Virus record (IMG/VR): IMGVR_UViG_3300014969_000016
Span: 1-64,000 of that record
DNA: 64,000 bases
Source of the DNA: a virus
Lineage: Duplodnaviria; Caudoviricetes
Reading direction: 5' to 3' (one strand)
Shown here piece after piece: positions 56,706 through 63,673 of this stretch. Position 1 is the stretch's first letter; every line of letters starts with the position of its first letter. The position numbers were made by a program, and so were the translations under genes. The notes under the pieces were generated by a model. It saw nothing but the letters and a program-made list of their open reading frames with translations. It searched no databases and was not told the origin of the DNA.

Positions 56706-57704
56706 CCCGGCAACGTACTAGCAACTTTGTCCCTTAGCGACATGAAGGGGATCAAGGGGATCTGAGTTACCGCGGCAGCGGTAGACCGGCCCCCGGAACT
56801 TCCCATACACCGGTTACAACAGGTAACAGCACTCCATACCACAGTTACGTACATCCAGCCAGTGCAAACTCTCAAACCACTCACAAACACTCCCAAACCG
56901 GCTGTTAAGCACTACGAGTTGACAGCACTACCCGAAAAGTGACGTTTCCGTTTGTATTTTCACCCTCAGCACGCTGGGGGTATGGTTTAGCCACTGTTGT
57001 CACAATGCGTATTCTAGCAACTCGCTGCACTACTCAGAGGGAGTTTAGGGCTTAAACCTACCCATGGGTGCTACAAAGCCCCTGGTGGGCCTTTGATCTT
57101 AATGTGGCGGGCGTAGCCCGCCATAGTATCAATTGGCCGCCGCTGTGCGGCGCCCATTTACTAGCAACTGCATGGCTGCGCAGCAGCCATACAGTCATGC
57201 GAGTTGCTAGTCCAATGGCCTTTAGGCCATTGGAGTTGACAGTATCGCACAGTTAGGCGGCCATGTCGCTATGCGACAATGAGCCATACAGGTGTATGTA
57301 CACGACATCGAGCATGCGATACGTGCATGCCGATAGGCATGACCGTAGGGTGAGCAGGCATTGCGGTACGTGCTCTAGTTACTAGCGCACGTGCTAGAGG
57401 GTGTGCGTTAGTACCTACCTGGTGCTATGGCATGCTCTAAGAGGTTGCTAGGGCCGCCGATTGGTGCGCCCCCTGGGGGCACTGATGGCACTGGTGACAC
57501 TGGTGAGCGTGACCAGGGCCGCGGTTGGGGCGCCCATACAGCGGTATGCGTGTGGACAGCTACGATGCCCTGAGACATGCCTGTGTGCCCGTAGAGCCAC
57601 GCAGTTGCTAGTAGGGTACGCTGATACCACAGGGGGCGTTTGCGTCGCTCTCAGAGGCGTACAGAGGCCTCTCAGGGAAACGCCCTGCTAGCAACCGGTG
57701 AACG

Positions 57705-57735
57705 CAAACAGCCCCAGGGGGTTACCCTGGGGCTG
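57705..57735 (-). terminator. Intrinsic terminator after the helicase gene
   Basis: CAGCCCCAGGG/CCCTGGGGCTG stem followed by TTTGCGTT on the minus strand. Confidence 0.65.
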
Positions 57736-57752: not shown

Positions 57753-59468
57753 TCAGGGCCGATACTGAGCCTGGGCCGATGGGTACCAGGCCTGCAGCAG
57801 GCTCTCAGTCAGCGTGTCCTCATCGATGGTCACCGGCCGACCGGCGTTCACCGCATCGCATATGGCGCTCTTCTCCTGCAGCACACCGAACAGGTGGCCG
57901 TCGATGGTCGGGGTGCCATCCTCCTGGCAGGCCTGGAGGATGTGCCAGGTGATGGCCTCGCCATCGATGGCCCGCTGCATGCTGATGCTGTCGGTGCGCA
58001 GGATGCGGTCCATGGCCTGTTTGAAGTCTCCCGCCGACCAGGGAAGCTGGGCGAACACCGCATCAGCCGCAGCCGTGAGGGTGACCCCGACCCCGGCCGC
58101 ACCGATCTGTGCCAGGCAGACCATCGTGTCGCTGTCCTGGTTCTGGAAGTCATTGATGGTCGTCATGCGACGGTCGCCCGTGACCTTGCCATTGATGGTG
58201 CAGTAGCGGATGCCCTTGCTACCCAGGGCCACGCCGATGGTTTCCCAGGCTCGCGTGTGGTGGTAGAACACAACGACCTTGCGGCCCTGATCGACCAGTT
58301 GCTGCACGTAGTCCACGGTGGCGTGCGCCTTGGCGTTGCCCGCCTCCTGCCACAGTGCGAACATGCGCTGGGCCGCTTCCATCTTCGCCTTTGCGAAGTA
58401 GGCCTTCGGACCCTCATTGCGCATGACGGTGCCCAGGAAGTCATTGGCCAGTTCGTTGTACCGGCGCAGCATGCCATTCAGGGCGATGGGGACGACGACG
58501 ATACCGCTGTTCGGCAGCAGGTCGCCCAGGTCGCTCTTCTCCCGGCGCACGTACACCGTGCTGCGCAGGTTGGAGTGAAGCTCGGCCGCACGTGTGAAGT
58601 CAGTACCGAACACGGTGAACTTGCGGCCCTTGGCCCACTTCTCCACGGGGGCGCAGTAGCGCCAGAGGAATCCGGATCCCTTGTGCGCACCAGGTGTGAG
58701 GGCCAGCAGCAGGTTCTCGCCACCCAGGTAGCTCAGTGGCACCATCGATTCGACCACGCGGTTGGTGAGCAACGTGCCAGTCATACCGACCAGGGGCGTG
58801 CCCTGGGCGCGCAGCGCCTCACCCAGCGCCATCATGACCTTGGCCCGACCGGTGGTCGCCTTGCCATTGCTGCCCTTGTCACGGTGGATCTCGTCACGCA
58901 CCACAATCTTGGCGGCGCGGATGAAAGCGTTCGCCTCCAGCCGAGTCTTCTCATGGCCATCGCGGTCGGTGTAGGTCACGGTGCGCGTGGTCCACGCCTG
59001 CATGGTCTGAGAGTGGTCGCTGATCCAGTACACGTCAGCGATGGGGAGGCTCGCGAAGTCAGCCTTGATGCCCTTGATGTGGTGAAAGCGCAGGCCGGGG
59101 AAGGCGGCTTTCATGTCACCCATGTATCCGGCCTGGGTGACGGGCGGGGCGAAGACCACGCCGTAGCCACCGTTGGCGATGCGCTCAGCGATCAGGGCCA
59201 GGGCGACGCGAGTCTTGCCCATGCCCATGTCATCACCGATGACGGCGCAGCCGAACGATGCGAGGGCGTGATTGGCCGCGACGCGTGCAGCGGTCTGATG
59301 CGGCAACTCAGGTGCGAGCAGTCCGGGGGGCGGCGGGGCGATGGCAGTCAGGGCGCTGGACAGATCGAACATGACCGGATCCAGGCCGGTGGCCAGGGCC
59401 GCTGGCGTCGGTGCGACCACGGGAACGGCTTGCGCCGCCTGCGTGATCGATGAGGGAAACAGTGACAT
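57753..59468 (-). CDS. SNF2-like SF2 helicase/translocase
   Basis: DDMGMGKT, DEIH, MTGT, KVVVF, GVGVTLTAA, QAMDRILR; GGAG RBS before MSLFP. Confidence 0.88.
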   Translation of the reverse strand: MSLFPSSITQAAQAVPVVAPTPAALATGLDPVMFDLSSALTAIAPPPPGLLAPELPHQTAARVAANHALASFGCAVIGDDMGMGKTRVALALIAERIANGGYGVVFAPPVTQAGYMGDMKAAFPGLRFHHIKGIKADFASLPIADVYWISDHSQTMQAWTTRTVTYTDRDGHEKTRLEANAFIRAAKIVVRDEIHRDKGSNGKATTGRAKVMMALGEALRAQGTPLVGMTGTLLTNRVVESMVPLSYLGGENLLLALTPGAHKGSGFLWRYCAPVEKWAKGRKFTVFGTDFTRAAELHSNLRSTVYVRREKSDLGDLLPNSGIVVVPIALNGMLRRYNELANDFLGTVMRNEGPKAYFAKAKMEAAQRMFALWQEAGNAKAHATVDYVQQLVDQGRKVVVFYHHTRAWETIGVALGSKGIRYCTINGKVTGDRRMTTINDFQNQDSDTMVCLAQIGAAGVGVTLTAAADAVFAQLPWSAGDFKQAMDRILRTDSISMQRAIDGEAITWHILQACQEDGTPTIDGHLFGVLQEKSAICDAVNAGRPVTIDEDTLTESLLQAWYPSAQAQYRP

Positions 59469-59503
59469 GGTGATAGCTCCGGGATACGGGAAGTGGGAAA
59501 GGT

Positions 59504-59551
59504 CAGTGTACAGCCTGCACCCTGGTATCACAACGTGCTGTGATACCAGGG
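59504..59551 (-). promoter_or_regulatory. Cassette promoter module 1
   Basis: TTGTGA-N17-TACACT with a CCCTGGTATCACA/TGTGATACCAGGG inverted repeat. Confidence 0.75.
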
Positions 59552-59573
59552 TACCAGGGTACGAGCGGCAGGC

Positions 59574-60443
59574 TCAGCCCCAGGGCAGGCCGTTCTTCTT
59601 GGCGCACACCGGCCCGTAGCCCACGGCCACCGAACGGTTGTCGCCCTCATCGGTCAACTCCAGGTTGCAGAAGCAGCAGTGGTGCGTGGCCCAGCCCAGG
59701 CCAGCAGCCTCAGCGGCCGTGGCGGGGCGCCCGTTGCGCACCATGGCCATGCCACCCTTGACGTAGTCCCAGGACAGCTTCTCACCGGCAACCGGCGCAG
59801 CGATCAGGCGCATGGCGTACTGGTTGCCCGACGTGCGGCCCGTGCGGATCAGCCAGAAGGATGACCAGTCGCCCTCAGGGCCGACCACGTACAGCCCGTT
59901 GGCCAGGGGCGTGCGAGGCGCACCCTTGGCAGCGACCATGCGGCCTGCAGCCTCACGCTGGCGCTCGGTGAGCGTGCGACCAGCATCAGCCTGGCCCACC
60001 AGGCTCGCAGCGAACTCACGGTTGCGAGGCGACGCAGCCGCATCGTCAGCGATGGCTCGCAGCGCTTCGACCAGGTCGTCCTTCGGCGTGACAGCCTTGG
60101 CGATCAGGTTGCGGGCGGCGAACAGGTTGATCAGCATGGCGTAGGCGACGTTCTCGTCGGCCGTGCCAGCGATGACCTGGCCCAGGACGCTCATGTCCAC
60201 GGTGGCCAGGGGATCGGATGCGAACGTGTGACCAGCGGCCAGCGCATCGATGCTGCGCACCGTGCCAGCGACCTGGGCGGCGATGGTGGGGGCGCACGTG
60301 GGGCAGATCGCGATCCACTTGCCAGAGGCATTGACGGCGGCGTAGCCGTGGCCCACTCGCGTGGCGTCCTTGCAGAAGAGGCACTGGCCATCGCGCTTGG
60401 TGGCGATGACTCGGCTGAATCGGGCGAGGCCTGGAGTGTTCAT
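59574..60443 (-). CDS. Zinc-binding protein with C-terminal DUF6011-like motif
   Basis: CLFC...CPTC N-terminus; CCFCNLELTD...SVAVGYGPVCA C-terminus. Confidence 0.7.
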   Translation of the reverse strand: MNTPGLARFSRVIATKRDGQCLFCKDATRVGHGYAAVNASGKWIAICPTCAPTIAAQVAGTVRSIDALAAGHTFASDPLATVDMSVLGQVIAGTADENVAYAMLINLFAARNLIAKAVTPKDDLVEALRAIADDAAASPRNREFAASLVGQADAGRTLTERQREAAGRMVAAKGAPRTPLANGLYVVGPEGDWSSFWLIRTGRTSGNQYAMRLIAAPVAGEKLSWDYVKGGMAMVRNGRPATAAEAAGLGWATHHCCFCNLELTDEGDNRSVAVGYGPVCAKKNGLPWG

Positions 60444-60492
60444 GGGAGTGATCCGATCTCCGCACGGTGGCGGGGTGAAGTGGTGACAGGGA

Positions 60493-60553
60493 TCATGATA
60501 GGGCGCATACCCTGGTATCACAACACGGCGTTGCTAGAAACTCGGGAATCTTT
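60493..60553 (-). promoter_or_regulatory. Cassette promoter module 2
   Basis: AAAGATTC...TTGTGA-N17-TATCAT. Confidence 0.7.
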
Positions 60554-60652
60554 CAGGGCATCCCTGACGACATAACGCGGAGCAGCCCTGATCCCGTCCC
60601 ACCCGGATGCGGTAGCTCGGTGGCCTCGCGGCCCCGCTCGGAGTGGGCGCCC

Positions 60653-60925
60653 TCAGCAGGCGTCGTAGACCACGCCCGTGCCGTTGCACTCGGAGCAGAT
60701 GTCCACCTCAGCGAGCATCGCCTTGGCGACGGGGCTGGCCAGGCCAGAGCCTGAGGTGAGCGCCCAGCAGGCGGTGCTCACGGCATCGGAGAATCGGCTG
60801 CCGGTGCAGTTCATGATGTAGTGCGCCTCTTGCGAAACGACGGGGCGCAACTCATCGGCAAGACCGGAGTTCACGAAGATCAACTCGGCCCTGGGGTTGC
60901 CCAGCGTGGTGGTGGTGGTGGTCAT
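60653..60925 (-). CDS. Hypothetical leaderless early protein
   Basis: ATG 6 nt after TACACT; C-terminal CSECNGTG. Confidence 0.6.
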   Translation of the reverse strand: MTTTTTTLGNPRAELIFVNSGLADELRPVVSQEAHYIMNCTGSRFSDAVSTACWALTSGSGLASPVAKAMLAEVDICSECNGTGVVYDAC

Positions 60926-60930
60926 GGGAT

Positions 60931-60990
60931 CAGTGTACAGGCGATACGTGGGTATCACAACACACTGTTGTGATACCCACGCAGATTTCT
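60931..60990 (-). promoter_or_regulatory. Cassette promoter module 3
   Basis: AGAAATC...TTGTGA-N17-TACACT; GTGGGTATCACAACA/TGTTGTGATACCCAC inverted repeat. Confidence 0.8.
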
Positions 60991-61331
60991 CAGACCTGCG
61001 TGCAGCCCTCCGCAGCCGCAGCCGCAGCGATCTCGTCACGCAGGCGGCGCATGCGCACCGCACGGGCGTCCTGCTCGGCGCGAGCGATGGGCGTGTTGCG
61101 GAACGCAGCCAGCAGGCCGTCGTTGCCACGGTTGTGGGCCATGATGATGACAGTCTTGTTGGGACCAGTCGTGACATTGATGCTGGCGAACCCGCTGCAC
61201 AGGTTGCCGGTGGCGCTGTTCACAGCATCCACGGTGCGGGCGATGGTGTAGCCCAGCGCGAGCATGTCACCGATCTCGGTGGCTGCCCACGTCTCGGTGG
61301 CGTAGTCGGTGGTGAGGGTGAGGGTGTACAT
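60990..61331 (-). CDS. Hypothetical early protein
   Basis: MYTLTLTT...; stop abuts module 3. Confidence 0.6.
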   Translation of the reverse strand: MYTLTLTTDYATETWAATEIGDMLALGYTIARTVDAVNSATGNLCSGFASINVTTGPNKTVIIMAHNRGNDGLLAAFRNTPIARAEQDARAVRMRRLRDEIAAAAAAEGCTQV

Positions 61332-61356
61332 GGTGGTGAGTCCTGTCGGTCGGTGG

Positions 61357-61411
61357 TGATACCAGTGTATCGGGCGCACCGTGTTGTCACAACACGGTGC
61401 GCCTGATTTCT
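61357..61411 (-). promoter_or_regulatory. Cassette promoter module 4
   Basis: TTGTGA-N17-TACACT within the palindrome GGCGCACCGTGTTGT-C-ACAACACGGTGCGCC. Confidence 0.8.
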
Positions 61412-61413
61412 GA

Positions 61414-61710
61414 TCAGACCAGCGTGGCGCCCTTGCGGGCGGCGAACCGGCCGAACGCTGCGAGCATGCCCTCGCGGCCGATGTCCTTCGACATGCGGGC
61501 GACAGCCTTGTACGTGCTGCGCTTACGGTCGTACGAGCCGCCCGGATGGTTCGGGAACGATGATGCTGCCAGGACGGTGCCGTCGCTGCGCAGCACGTAG
61601 AACGTGCGGACGATGCCGCCGACGCCCTGCAGGCCGTCGTTGTCCTCGGCCGTGTAGTCGCTGGTTGCCTCGGCAAGCTTGACTGCGCCGCGGGCTGAAA
61701 TCTTGGCCAT
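61414..61710 (-). CDS. Hypothetical early protein
   Basis: AAGGAG RBS; YVLRSDGTVL. Confidence 0.65.
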   Translation of the reverse strand: MAKISARGAVKLAEATSDYTAEDNDGLQGVGGIVRTFYVLRSDGTVLAASSFPNHPGGSYDRKRSTYKAVARMSKDIGREGMLAAFGRFAARKGATLV

Positions 61711-61734
61711 GGTGGTGGCTCCTTCGGTAGGTGG

Positions 61735-61790
61735 TGTGATACCAGTGTACAGGCATACACTGGTATCACAACACGGTGAGCAGGATTTCT
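61735..61790 (-). promoter_or_regulatory. Cassette promoter module 5
   Basis: TTGTGA-N16-TACACT; TGTGATACCAGTGTA/TACACTGGTATCACA inverted repeat. Confidence 0.8.
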
Positions 61791-61801
61791 TGGTGTCTCG
61801 T

Positions 61802-62056
61802 TCAGATGCTCCCGTCCATGTCGATACGGGCGACGATGGCGTCGGCCCGTGCGTACAGGGCGTCCACGTCGTCTTCGTCCAGGTACAGGCCAGCCTGCTC
61901 GGCAGCGTCGCTCAGCAGGGCGTACACAGCCTCCTGCATGGGCACCCACTCGTTGGCGCTGGCATCGCCAACGCTCAGGCCGTCCTCCAGGAAGGCGGCG
62001 CGGATCTGCTCGTTCGTGATCCGGATGCGGTTGATGGCGTCGTTGCCCACGTTCAT
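61802..62056 (-). CDS. Acidic hypothetical early protein
   Basis: 84 aa, Asp/Glu-rich; ATGA coupling. Confidence 0.6.
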   Translation of the reverse strand: MNVGNDAINRIRITNEQIRAAFLEDGLSVGDASANEWVPMQEAVYALLSDAAEQAGLYLDEDDVDALYARADAIVARIDMDGSI

Positions 62057-62220
62057 GACGTGACCTCGACGGTCCAGCCGTCACGGGCGACCATCTCGTC
62101 GTAGTTGCGGAGGATGTACATGGTGGCCCATGCGATGAGCGCCTTGTCGGTGCGCTCCACGGTGGAGTCCATCTCCAGCGGCTCGGAAAGCTGCGGGTGG
62201 CTCAGGCGGTAGGTGATCAT
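62053..62220 (-). CDS. Hypothetical early protein
   Basis: Manual translation MITYRLSHPQLSEPL...EVTS*; GGAG RBS. Confidence 0.6.
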   Translation of the reverse strand: MITYRLSHPQLSEPLEMDSTVERTDKALIAWATMYILRNYDEMVARDGWTVEVTS

Positions 62221-62314
62221 GGTGGTTCTCCCGGTAAGTGGTGGGTGGTGGGTGGCTCCCCGCCCGCAGGCGGGGAGCCGGTGCCCGAGTCTCAGGTCGG
62301 TGCCGCCTCTGTCG

Positions 62315-62372
62315 TGTGATACCAGTGTATCGAGCGCAGCGTGGTATCACAACACGCTGCGCCCGAATCTTT
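62315..62372 (-). promoter_or_regulatory. Cassette promoter module 6
   Basis: TTGTGA-N17-TACACT; GCGCAGCGTG/CACGCTGCGC arms. Confidence 0.8.
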
Positions 62373-62587
62373 CAGGCGGTCACCCAGGGGGCGACGGCCC
62401 ACACCAGGTCGGTGGTGCGCATGAACAGCCCGTTGGGGTACAGGTCGGTCAGCACGGTGACGGTGCCAGGCGTGTCGTGGAATTCGAAGCCGGTCACCAC
62501 GTGGGGGATGTCGCTGGAATCAACGAACTCCTGGCCCACGCACAGGTGCGCAACCTCGCGGCGGATGTAAGTGGCTTGTGCGGTCAT
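62372..62587 (-). CDS. Hypothetical leaderless early protein
   Basis: ATG 6 nt after TACACT. Confidence 0.6.
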   Translation of the reverse strand: MTAQATYIRREVAHLCVGQEFVDSSDIPHVVTGFEFHDTPGTVTVLTDLYPNGLFMRTTDLVWAVAPWVTA

Positions 62588-62591
62588 GGTG

Positions 62592-62641
62592 TCAGTGTAC
62601 AGGGTGGCGAGTGTTGTCACAACACGGTGACCAGGATTTCT
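62592..62641 (-). promoter_or_regulatory. Cassette promoter module 7
   Basis: TTGTGA-N17-TACACT; GTGTTGT-C-ACAACAC palindrome. Confidence 0.75.
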
Positions 62642-62679
62642 CCCGGCCACCGTGTGTCGTGCTCCCTACCACCAGGAGA

Positions 62680-62895
62680 TCAGCCAGCGGTGAACACAGG
62701 CCTGCTGGTGCGCAGTGAGGCCTGGAAGAGCAGGTCGTAGATGGCCGTGCGGGCGGCGAACGCCGACGCACCGCTGCGGCGCAGGTTGCGGTAGTGGAAC
62801 CGCAGGTACCAGGCCGTGTAGTTGTCCACGGTGATGGTGTTGGGCGCGTAGTCAGCGTTGCGCCGGAACTTGATGATTTCGCGGGTGATGGTCAT
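62680..62895 (-). CDS. Basic hypothetical early protein
   Basis: AGGAG RBS before MTITRE. Confidence 0.6.
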   Translation of the reverse strand: MTITREIIKFRRNADYAPNTITVDNYTAWYLRFHYRNLRRSGASAFAARTAIYDLLFQASLRTSRPVFTAG

Positions 62896-62926
62896 GGTTG
62901 GCTCCTGGCCGGTAAGTGGTGGTGGT

Positions 62927-62977
62927 GTCAGTGTACAGGGTGCGCCGTGTTGTGACAACACGGCGCACCAGGTTTCT
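62927..62977 (-). promoter_or_regulatory. Cassette promoter module 8
   Basis: TTGTCA-N17-TACACT within GGTGCGCCGTGTTGT-G-ACAACACGGCGCACC. Confidence 0.8.
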
Positions 62978-63165
62978 CAGGCCGTGGCCTGCGCCCCATC
63001 GATGAGGAAGGCCGTCAGGTCTGCGACCTGCGAGGGATCCAGGTCAACGACCTGGCCATCGGTGGTGTAGACCCACACGTGGCCCTCATCGGTGAACACG
63101 GCGCGAAGACTGTCGCCCGTGCCATCGGTGGCATTGAAGTTGGATACGAGTGCGTTCTGGAACAT
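62977..63165 (-). CDS. Acidic hypothetical early protein
   Basis: GGAG RBS before MFQNAL. Confidence 0.6.
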   Translation of the reverse strand: MFQNALVSNFNATDGTGDSLRAVFTDEGHVWVYTTDGQVVDLDPSQVADLTAFLIDGAQATA

Positions 63166-63184
63166 GGTGCTCTCCATTCGGTGG

Positions 63185-63241
63185 TGTGATACCAGGGTAC
63201 AGGATGCACCCTGGTATCACAACACGGTCGGGCTGATTTCT
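63185..63241 (-). promoter_or_regulatory. Cassette promoter module 9
   Basis: TTGTGA-N17-TACCCT; TGTGATACCAGGGT/ACCCTGGTATCACA inverted repeat. Confidence 0.8.
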
Positions 63242-63561
63242 CAGCGGGCGTTCACGGCGGCAACCGCCGCAGCGTGGCTGCCAGGGCACTCGCAACCGCC
63301 CATGGCGATCTGCAGGGCCGTGCAGGTGGGCAGGTGCCATTTGAACGACACCATCTGGCGGTCGATCTCCTGGGCGCCGTGCAGCAGGTTGGCTGCGAGC
63401 GTGCGAGCCTGCTCGGCGGTGAGGCGCAGGTCAGCCAGCACGCCGCCGTTGTCACGGTCGGTCACGCCGTCCTTCCACACCCGCACCATGACGGCGGGGC
63501 GCAGCTTGGCGTTCTGAACTTCGATCAGTTCGCCGTGGTCGGTGGCCTGGAGGGTTTGCAT
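63241..63561 (-). CDS. Hypothetical early protein
   Basis: GGGAG RBS; LTAEQARTLAANL motif and Cys/His tail. Confidence 0.65.
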   Translation of the reverse strand: MQTLQATDHGELIEVQNAKLRPAVMVRVWKDGVTDRDNGGVLADLRLTAEQARTLAANLLHGAQEIDRQMVSFKWHLPTCTALQIAMGGCECPGSHAAAVAAVNAR

Positions 63562-63595
63562 GTCGGTATCTCCCTGGTTCGGTCGGTGGTGTACC

Positions 63596-63628
63596 CCAGG
63601 ATACAGGAGTTGCTAGCAACCACAACCT
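63596..63628 (-). promoter_or_regulatory. Variant promoter module 10 with TTGCTAGCAA palindrome in the spacer
   Basis: TTGTGG-N16-TATCCT. Confidence 0.55.
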
Positions 63629-63652
63629 CGATACCCAGGTTTATACCTGTTT

Positions 63653-63673
63653 TTATCCACAGAGTTGTCCACA
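63653..63673 (+). promoter_or_regulatory. Two tandem DnaA boxes
   Basis: TTATCCACA (63653-63661) and TTGTCCACA (63665-63673) in non-coding DNA. Confidence 0.65.

Follow-up and report, generated by a model that had tools for sequence, protein, structure and literature searches.

A predicted early region of an uncultured soil phage built from overlapping promoter-hairpin modules

Ten related intergenic modules lie at 59.47-63.66 kb of the IMG/VR virus record IMGVR_UViG_3300014969_000016, where they alternate with mostly small genes, and the question they raise is whether such palindromic repeats serve to exchange these genes, to regulate them together, or to delimit their transcription. The record is a phage genome of 115,714 bp (63% G+C, 98% complete) and its first 64 kb are referred to as the window; positions beyond 64 kb are those of the whole genome. 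Here, I show that the hairpins of the modules look selected and that they follow the gene lying upstream; the explanation that probably fits best is that each module overlaps a predicted promoter with a hairpin serving the preceding gene.

Relatives were gathered by searches with the SNF2 and DUF6011 proteins encoded at one end of the array in IMG/VR, ENA, JGI and Logan. The present genome is called G and the related loci or contigs are labelled L0xx; L041 is a close variant (97.5% identical) and L037 is a piece of G. Three of the relatives were compared by gene maps, among them a 115,772-bp ENA contig (sample ERZ25039591) whose DUF6011 protein is 77% identical to that of G. A further metagenome scan with the DUF6011 protein returned nothing, and one with an alignment returned only the known relative L015 and remote matches.

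All ten elements announced by the earlier note were found again, on the minus strand as is every gene of the region. Nine were detected as repeats, with start-to-start spacings of 990, 437, 432, 379-380, 580-581, 270, 336 and 264 bp, and the tenth, about 400 bp beyond the ninth, was read by eye. The intergenic modules are 64-150 bp long and, along the minus strand, run from a stop codon TGA through (A)GAAATC, a gap, CGTGTTGTGAYA holding the -35 TTGTGA and a 16-17-nt spacer to (C)TG-TACACT-G. The pattern (A)GAAATC - 12 nt (or 22-23 nt) - CGTGTTGTGAYA - TACACTG, with its 16-17-nt spacer between the -35 and the -10, fits nine of the ten modules, so that the TTGTGA-N16/17 spacing first reported for most copies holds; the tenth copy, before the gene g11, is degenerate (TTGTGG-16-TATCCT, with GTTGCTAGCAAC within the spacer). 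Downstream of the -10 there follows either a leader of the form GGTATCACACC...CACCACC...ACCG...GGAG...ATG or an ATG 6 nt past the -10 (g3, g8); three genes have an ATG at this distance, like leaderless genes. A predicted sigma70-like promoter, with the GGAG leader or with the leaderless ATG, is present at 10/10 modules. Each module precedes a single gene, except the one that precedes the pair g7 and g6, and the nine small proteins encoded have no mutual similarity and belong to no Pfam or PHROG family, which agrees with the one or two unrelated small genes per element that had been proposed.

The A-rich element, AGAAATC or AAGATTC, stands 12 nt (or 22-23 nt) upstream of the -35 in 8/10 modules, the longer gap, seen in two copies, amounting to about one extra helical turn. 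AGAAATC is found also at the promoter at 69908, where no gene precedes; judged by its position, it is a UP-like element that belongs to the promoter. With a two-block weight matrix, the 115.7-kb genome yields 19 sites, every one at 57.0-73.5 kb, and five shuffles yield none; a looser pattern gives 12 sites against 0-1 in shuffles and adds those at 66,895 and 68,506. The sites on the minus strand range between 69,908 and 59,533 and those on the plus strand are at 70,154, 72,604 and 73,532, which places the centre of divergence near 70.0 kb. The variants of the -10 (TACACT, TACCCT, TATCAT, TATCCT, TATACT, TACAAT and TATCGT) all retain TANNNT, and both the -35 and the -10 blocks are kept in relatives whose core genes share only 67-71% DNA identity. 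One predicted promoter class serves the divergent early region, and the array is its densest part, with one promoter per gene; the promoter activity and the early timing of the modules are read from these sequence features. Within the whole best explanation, the phage is probably of a lytic type, with a genome of ~116 kb and BRock-like phages as its nearest cultured relatives, and the array is where its leftward early region is densest.

Eight of the ten modules fold better than their shuffles (z = -3.4 to -6.6), and their arms differ between copies yet stay complementary, as the earlier note had described. A single covariance model of the module was dropped, since the hairpin register differs from copy to copy, and orthologous promoters were used instead: the SNF2 promoter was aligned from G and six related loci, i.e. 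seven orthologous promoters. In this stem 93.8% of the cells are paired and 8 of the 16 pairs have changed on both sides; none of 500 shuffles reaches this result, and controls with the partner shifted by 1-3 columns have 0-4 pairs of this kind. In L015 the -35 itself is altered, from TGTGATAC to TGTGTTAT, and the upstream arm has followed, while the hairpin of g8 has one design in G and another in L014. The hairpin looks selected, under a structural rather than a sequence constraint; the selection on symmetry suspected from the copies of one array is thereby borne out by covariation among orthologues.

What the hairpin is tied to emerges from 43 promoters of the class, taken from G and its relatives, at which a co-directional open reading frame (ORF) ending no more than 75 nt upstream was looked for and an inverted repeat score of at least 8 was counted as a hairpin. 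A hairpin occurs at 24 of the 26 promoters with such an upstream ORF end vs 3 of the 17 without (Fisher p = 8e-7), and one of these three exceptions sits at a contig end, where the upstream ORF is not visible. The first-in-unit promoters (69,908 and 70,154 in G, 3050 in L014, 2267 in L003) have the full -35 motif, and AGAAATC too, but no hairpin. Because its presence tracks the upstream gene, the hairpin belongs to the preceding gene and not to the promoter. Along the same line, 23 perfect hairpins with stems of at least 10 bp occur in the genome vs 0 in one shuffle; eight are in modules and several of the others directly follow annotated gene ends, including the one after SNF2 and the one between the AAA_5 ATPase and Ku genes. 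None of them carries a strong T-run, and therefore, given also their gene-end positions, the module hairpins resemble the ordinary end-of-gene hairpins of this phage. A comparison with Rfam gave nothing above noise.

The mechanism proposed is as follows. A module would comprise an A-rich element set upstream of the -35 at a constant distance, a promoter for the principal sigma factor of the host (TTGTGA-N16/17-TANNNT), the shared CACCACC...ACCG...GGAG leader or a leaderless start, and a strong hairpin in the RNA read through from the upstream gene. At the RNA level, this hairpin would terminate or attenuate transcription of the upstream gene or protect its 3' end, while sharing sequence with the next promoter, and each gene or gene pair would become an insulated transcription unit. 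At 64-105 bp the spacers are very short, and for this reason the hairpin would be built from the promoter and a complementary copy of it; promoter sequence that cannot change would pair with a copy placed wherever there is room, which would explain why the register differs from copy to copy. I regard this as the probable explanation, taken as a whole; termination itself, like the action in the RNA, is conjectured from the sequence.

Several observations weigh against it. No sense-strand T-run follows the hairpins, so efficient intrinsic termination is doubtful; a canonical intrinsic terminator (GC stem with a direct T-run) was not found in the array, and a search for terminator-like sites gave none on the sense strand, its only two matches being on the opposite strand. 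Stems are mostly perfect palindromes, with sense and antisense folding energies about equal, which leaves room for an action at the DNA level, and the lean that would speak for RNA is weak: among the best inverted repeats of all 35 promoters the arm mismatches on the sense strand comprise 11 G.T and 5 A.C, which is suggestive only. Two promoters with a gene directly upstream, 66166 in G and 9919 in L015, have hairpins below the score cut-off (the latter with a 7-bp stem nonetheless), and the ORF calls behind the upstream-gene association are heuristic. Conservation of the -35 block extends over ~13 nt, beyond the expected need of a sigma factor alone. A search of 185,579 bacterial and archaeal species, represented by one genome each, gave no occurrence of the motif, and the BRock-like phages lack it too, which made them unsuitable as close pairs. 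In IMG/VR the promoter pattern matched only one other contig.

The features of the array, from its upstream end, are these (g, gene; P, module).

63562..63660, minus strand: module P11, -35 TTGTGG at 63625-63620, 16-nt spacer with the palindrome GTTGCTAGCAAC, -10 TATCCT at 63603-63598; shared CACCACCGACC...GGAG leader, no long hairpin; first promoter of the dense array, identical in L041.
63241..63561, minus strand: g11, 106 aa, no known family.
63178..63240, minus strand: module P10, with stop TGA, AGAAATC, -35 at 63222 and -10 TACCCT; -35 region paired with the +1 region, 21-nt arms with 2 mismatches, z -6.6.
62977..63177, minus strand: g10, 62-66 aa, no known family.
62896..62976, minus strand: module P9, -35 TTGTCA at 62958, -10 TACACT; perfect 14-bp hairpin centred on the -35, z -4.5.
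62680..62895, minus strand: g9, 71 aa, no known family.
62588..62679, minus strand: module P8, -35 at 62622, -10 TACACT followed by GACACC-ATG, leaderless; upstream stem whose loop holds GAAA taken from AGAAATC.
62372..62587, minus strand: g8, 71 aa, leaderless; the sole gene of the dense array with homologues in relatives.
62221..62371, minus strand: module P7, -35 at 62352 in the loop of a 10-14-bp hairpin; long leader.
61802..62220, minus strand: g7 (55 aa, 62053-62220) and g6 (84 aa, 61802-62056), coupled with a 4-nt overlap.
61711..61801, minus strand: module P5, -35 at 61771, spacer 16, -10 TACACT; -35 paired with the +1 region, 19-nt arms, z -6.2.
61414..61710, minus strand: g5, 98 aa, no known family.
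61332..61413, minus strand: module P4, -35 at 61392; hairpin with 18-nt arms centred on the -35, z -6.2.
60990..61331, minus strand: g4, 113 aa, no known family.
60926..60989, minus strand: module P3, -35 at 60960, leaderless start TACACT-GATCCC-ATG; inverted copy of the -35 region upstream, 16-bp perfect arms, z -5.1.
60653..60925, minus strand: g3, 90 aa, leaderless, with an (ACC)n tract near its start.
60556..60652, minus strand: conserved non-coding element upstream of the DUF6011 promoter.
60444..60555, minus strand: module P2, -35 at 60523, -10 TATCAT; no hairpin, GTTTCTAGCAAC upstream.
59574..60443, minus strand: g2, 289 aa, C-terminal DUF6011; conserved anchor gene of the region.
59469..59573, minus strand: module P1, the SNF2 promoter, -35 at 59533; 14-bp perfect hairpin made with an upstream inverted copy of the -35 region, compensatory conservation in 7 orthologous loci.
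57753..59468, minus strand: g1, SNF2-type helicase, 571 aa (Helicase_C, phrog_62).
57709..57735, minus strand: end-of-unit hairpin, a 10-bp GC stem ~18 nt after the SNF2 stop, then TTTGCGTT; an ordinary hairpin, given for comparison.

The stems are thus constructed in different ways: with an inverted copy of the -35 placed upstream (P1, P3), as a palindrome centred on the -35 (P4, P9), with the -35 in the loop (P7), by pairing of the -35 with the +1 region (P5, P10), or as a separate upstream stem with a GAAA loop (P8). The identities suggested earlier for the SNF2 helicase and the DUF6011 protein were confirmed by their family matches. The cassette genes may have a role in host takeover or anti-defence. 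Homologues of g8 occur in L014 (78% nucleotide identity), L015, L042 and others; their carriers include contigs of 136 kb and 114.5 kb. The leader of g7 has an insertion of 65 nt, missing from L041, in which lies a perfect 10-bp GC hairpin (62254-62279), and the A-rich element of P7 reads AAGATTC in G and AGAAACC in L041. The C-terminus of g3, CSECNGTGVVYDAC, has a CxxCxGxG motif of the kind seen in DnaJ-type zinc fingers.

As to the phage itself, a DNA search of the region against cultured phages gave no match. The portal is closest (56% identity) to that of the Streptomyces phages BRock, Alone3, LuckySocke, GiJojo and pSt2308, whose genomes are 112-116 kb, and the large terminase is 48% identical to that of the same phages; the SNF2 and Ku proteins have remote matches or none among cultured phages. 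Several metagenomes of soil or rhizosphere contain near-identical copies of the phage, which is present in runs such as SRR7975588 and JGI 3300026088 and 3300005841. An Rpf-type transglycosylase domain is encoded by relatives, and in the phage genome the Ku protein adjoins an AAA_5 ATPase, a pairing noted too in Cluster O mycobacteriophages (Cresawn et al. 2015, PMC4351075). The host is probably an actinobacterium, because of the BRock-like relatives, the soil and rhizosphere copies, the Rpf-type domain, the Ku pairing and the leaderless genes.

The closest known system is the promoter-early stem-loop (PeSL) of T4-type phages, and the analogy drawn with it in the earlier note is apt in both architecture and distribution. 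A PeSL is made of an intergenic A/T-rich stretch, a terminator stem-loop with a variable stem, a sigma70-like early promoter with a spacer of ~17 and a ribosome site (PMC2839356, PMC4122927). Such elements are known in RB49/phi1, T4/PST and KVP40/nt-1 (Arbiol et al. 2010, PMC2839356; Comeau et al. 2014, PMC4122927); they cluster in hyperplastic regions and have been shown to recombine with one another, giving mini-circles (PMC2839356, PMC4122927). Both systems pair a sigma70-type promoter with a variable-stem hairpin placed against upstream transcription, both have an A-rich element upstream, and both sit in hyperplastic regions of small relative-less genes that differ between related phages. 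The present phage is, however, not a T4-like myovirus; it belongs to an unrelated high-G+C lineage, as the portal indicates. The PeSL stem-loop is separate from the promoter and upstream of it, whereas here the two overlap, the -35, or the stretch from the -35 to the +1, forming one arm in at least four registers; some units here are leaderless, no T-run follows the stem, and the mapped breakpoint falls outside the modules. The g8 island extends from within its module to the stop codon.

The cassette design of promoter and stem-loop, known from coliphages and vibriophages of the T4 type, is in this way extended to a soil phage lineage that is uncultured, high in G+C and allied to Streptomyces phages. 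No new kind of genetic element is revealed; what sets the array apart is a stem made out of the promoter, with a register that changes between copies. The comparative evidence, namely the compensatory changes in seven promoters and the association with the upstream gene, adds that the hairpin is selected and tied to that gene. For functional screening, e.g. for toxicity or counter-defence, the array supplies a promoter consensus and what would be insulated single-gene early units. Hairpins without a T-run have a further parallel, since hairpin-only ('I-shaped') terminators have been proposed for Actinobacteria, although whether such hairpins terminate is disputed; the likeness lies in GC-rich stems after stop codons lacking a T-run, and the difference in that the stems described here overlap a promoter.

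In T4-type phages recombination between PeSLs yields mini-circles, and the modules could likewise be mainly crossover points at which single-gene cassettes are excised, inserted or swapped between co-infecting phages. Gene content between the flanks makes this reading attractive. All relatives retain the flanking pairs AAA_5-Ku and DUF6011-SNF2 (~70% DNA identity in L014 and L015), and the 4-7 kb between them are almost wholly different from one relative to another, with the modules as the best-conserved DNA (80-95% identity); P5, for instance, is 95% identical over 42 nt to a module of L003 that drives an unrelated gene. The gene g8 with its promoter is common to G and L014 at a nucleotide identity above that of the core genes (78% vs ~70%), its neighbours differ on both sides, and the homology begins in the module and stops at the g8 stop codon. 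In gene maps only, a DUF7717 gene lies before g8 in L014 and after g8 in another relative.

The mapped junctions point elsewhere. Between G and L041, a stretch of 1,348 bp is free of differences and the adjoining 894 bp, starting at position 62,476, contain 55 (6% divergence); this switch, the only sharp breakpoint mapped between close relatives, lies inside g8, at least 110 bp from the nearest module, and the mosaic boundary indicates, from the pattern of differences, a recent homologous exchange ending inside g8. The gene h2, present in G and absent from L015, was gained or lost between coupled genes where G has no module. The only islands shared between the flanks (h3, h1, an 85-aa gene and g8) follow the same order in L014 and L015, L041 keeps the gene order of G, and so do six near-identical copies, whose differences are restricted to indels of the (ACC)n and CCACCCA repeats (at 60922, the start of g3, and 62255, in the g7 leader). 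The longest exact match between two modules is 20 bp. An apparent two-gene difference between L042 and L043 turned out to be an effect of gene calling, as these are 99.5% identical and collinear, and a tblastx comparison of the arrays was too noisy to add anything to tblastn and blastn. Of the earlier proposal that units are gained, lost or reordered at the modules, the turnover of gene content between conserved flanks stands; the placing of the events at modules is not borne out by the breakpoint in g8 and the indel of h2, and no reordering is seen among near-identical copies. That the modules are mainly crossover points is thus possible but rather unlikely. With the hairpin as an element of the upstream gene, the region between AAA_5-Ku and DUF6011-SNF2 would still be hyperplastic, with genes gained, lost and replaced, and the conserved modules may act as short homology patches for this turnover, though they would not be required. 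The view that modules are needed for gene shuffling is tempered, because gene flux here also occurs without them.

Common regulation has been suggested as well: the TGTGATAC/GTATCACA inverted repeats would be operators, through which a dimeric regulator of phage or host switches the early promoters together. In favour of this, the motif is a palindrome lying across the -35 and +1 regions, the window contains 23 copies of TGTGATAC vs 1.4 expected (12 of them outside the array), and the ~13-nt conservation of the -35 block would be accounted for. Conserved inverted repeats in phiC31 and the stoperators of L5 are precedents. Another is found in the 17-bp dyads of Cluster O mycobacteriophages, which occur genome-wide with the invariant arms TGTTCGG-N3-CCGAACA (Cresawn et al. 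2015, PMC4351075). Both these phages and the present one have many small intergenic palindromes, but invariant arms there point to a protein site, whereas here the arms vary, covary and are tied to predicted early promoters. Operators such as stoperators have a fixed half-site spacing; here the gap between motif copies is 3, 7, 9, 10 or 16 nt and the position relative to the promoter shifts. Moreover, bases outside the motif covary, several hairpins lack it altogether (e.g. GGCGCACC/GGTGCGCC and GCGCAGC/GCTGCGC), and where no gene lies upstream the promoter has the motif only once, at the -35. The repeat is accounted for as the -35 region plus its complementary copy, and the operator reading fits poorly for the reasons just given, namely the variable gap, the covariation outside the motif and the dependence on the upstream gene; co-regulation through TGTGATAC half-sites, as first proposed, is improbable.

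A better operator candidate, on sequence grounds, is the palindrome TTGCTAGCAA. With one mismatch allowed it occurs four times in the window vs 0.4 expected (63609-63620, 60530-60541, 57157-57168 and 57684-57695) and also at 68490 and 70118 of the genome; the sites include the P11 spacer, a position upstream of P2 (in L014 and L001 too) and the neighbourhood of other early promoters.

A variant of the preferred explanation gives the overlap of hairpin and promoter a function of its own, coupling upstream transcription to downstream initiation by hand-off or mutual exclusion. The ground for it is that a hairpin arm is the -35/+1 of the next promoter, so that folding of the read-through RNA, or extrusion in the DNA, would occupy the polymerase site. 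Were this the case, the overlap would serve as an inherent insulator or switch where one single-gene unit meets the next, held by compensatory evolution in every lineage; its chances are nonetheless slim.

Action at the DNA level, by a cruciform or single-strand hairpin, would make of the modules supercoiling-sensitive or N4-like hairpin promoters, or else replication or recombination signals. The geometry favours extrusion (mostly perfect stems, arms of 10-21 nt, loops of 3-9 nt), and the folding energies of sense and antisense RNA lack a clear asymmetry. N4-type promoters, however, have a hairpin at a fixed position and a phage RNA polymerase. Here the register relative to the -35 and -10 varies, the conserved part is the linear -35/-10 boxes, and no T7-type RNA polymerase was matched in the genome, although the genome-wide control was uninformative; no RNA polymerase family was found among the large proteins tested, nor a sigma region-4 protein in the genome. 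As the hairpins also follow the upstream gene and their G.T mismatches exceed A.C on the sense strand, a DNA-level role is very unlikely. The analogy with integron attC sites, finally, goes no further than an array of small unrelated genes split by imperfectly conserved palindromes, and it can be practically discarded: integron cassettes are mostly promoterless, share a common promoter and adjoin IntI, whereas every unit here has its own promoter, the palindromes are made of promoter sequence without conserved attC core sites, and no tyrosine recombinase (PF00589) was found in the whole 115.7-kb genome, with the control positive in 14/14 genomes.

The conserved element at 60556-60652 (minus strand) contains CTCCGAG, a GC hairpin of lineage-specific sequence and a near-invariant block GCTACCGCA...GGGATCAGGG (ACGCAGCTACCGCACC..GGG..GGGACGGGATCAGGG). 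It is present in G, L001, L002, L014, L016 and L042-45, with a diverged form in L015, that is in at least six lineages, and the gene that precedes it differs among them. It has no Rfam match and its consensus fold is weak, because the variable hairpin is poorly aligned; the element may be a small RNA or a binding site.

On the upstream side, the left anchor consists of the AAA_5 ATPase (428 aa) and Ku (270 aa) genes at 67621-69840 of the genome (4621-6840 of L037), minus strand; a 16-bp hairpin between the two stands directly before a promoter, the classical separate arrangement of both elements. The ~550 bp at 63661-64200, between the dense array and the upstream operon, are without a called gene and have many GC-rich inverted repeats; relatives have a gap of similar size whose sequence is not conserved. 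Seven larger neighbour proteins gave nothing in Pfam or PHROGs, and a precomputed Acb5 label on a downstream 74-aa protein was not reproduced.

Further leaderless starts are seen elsewhere in the genome: at 53586 (minus strand) GTGTGA-16-TATAGT is followed by 6 nt and ATG, and at 70190 and 72639 (plus strand) proteins of 715 aa and 154 aa begin in this manner on the rightward side of the divergent early region. Two late genes (e.g. 33891, 39846) start with GATAC-GGAG-GTATC-ACA-ATG, an inverted repeat which would put the ribosome site in a loop.

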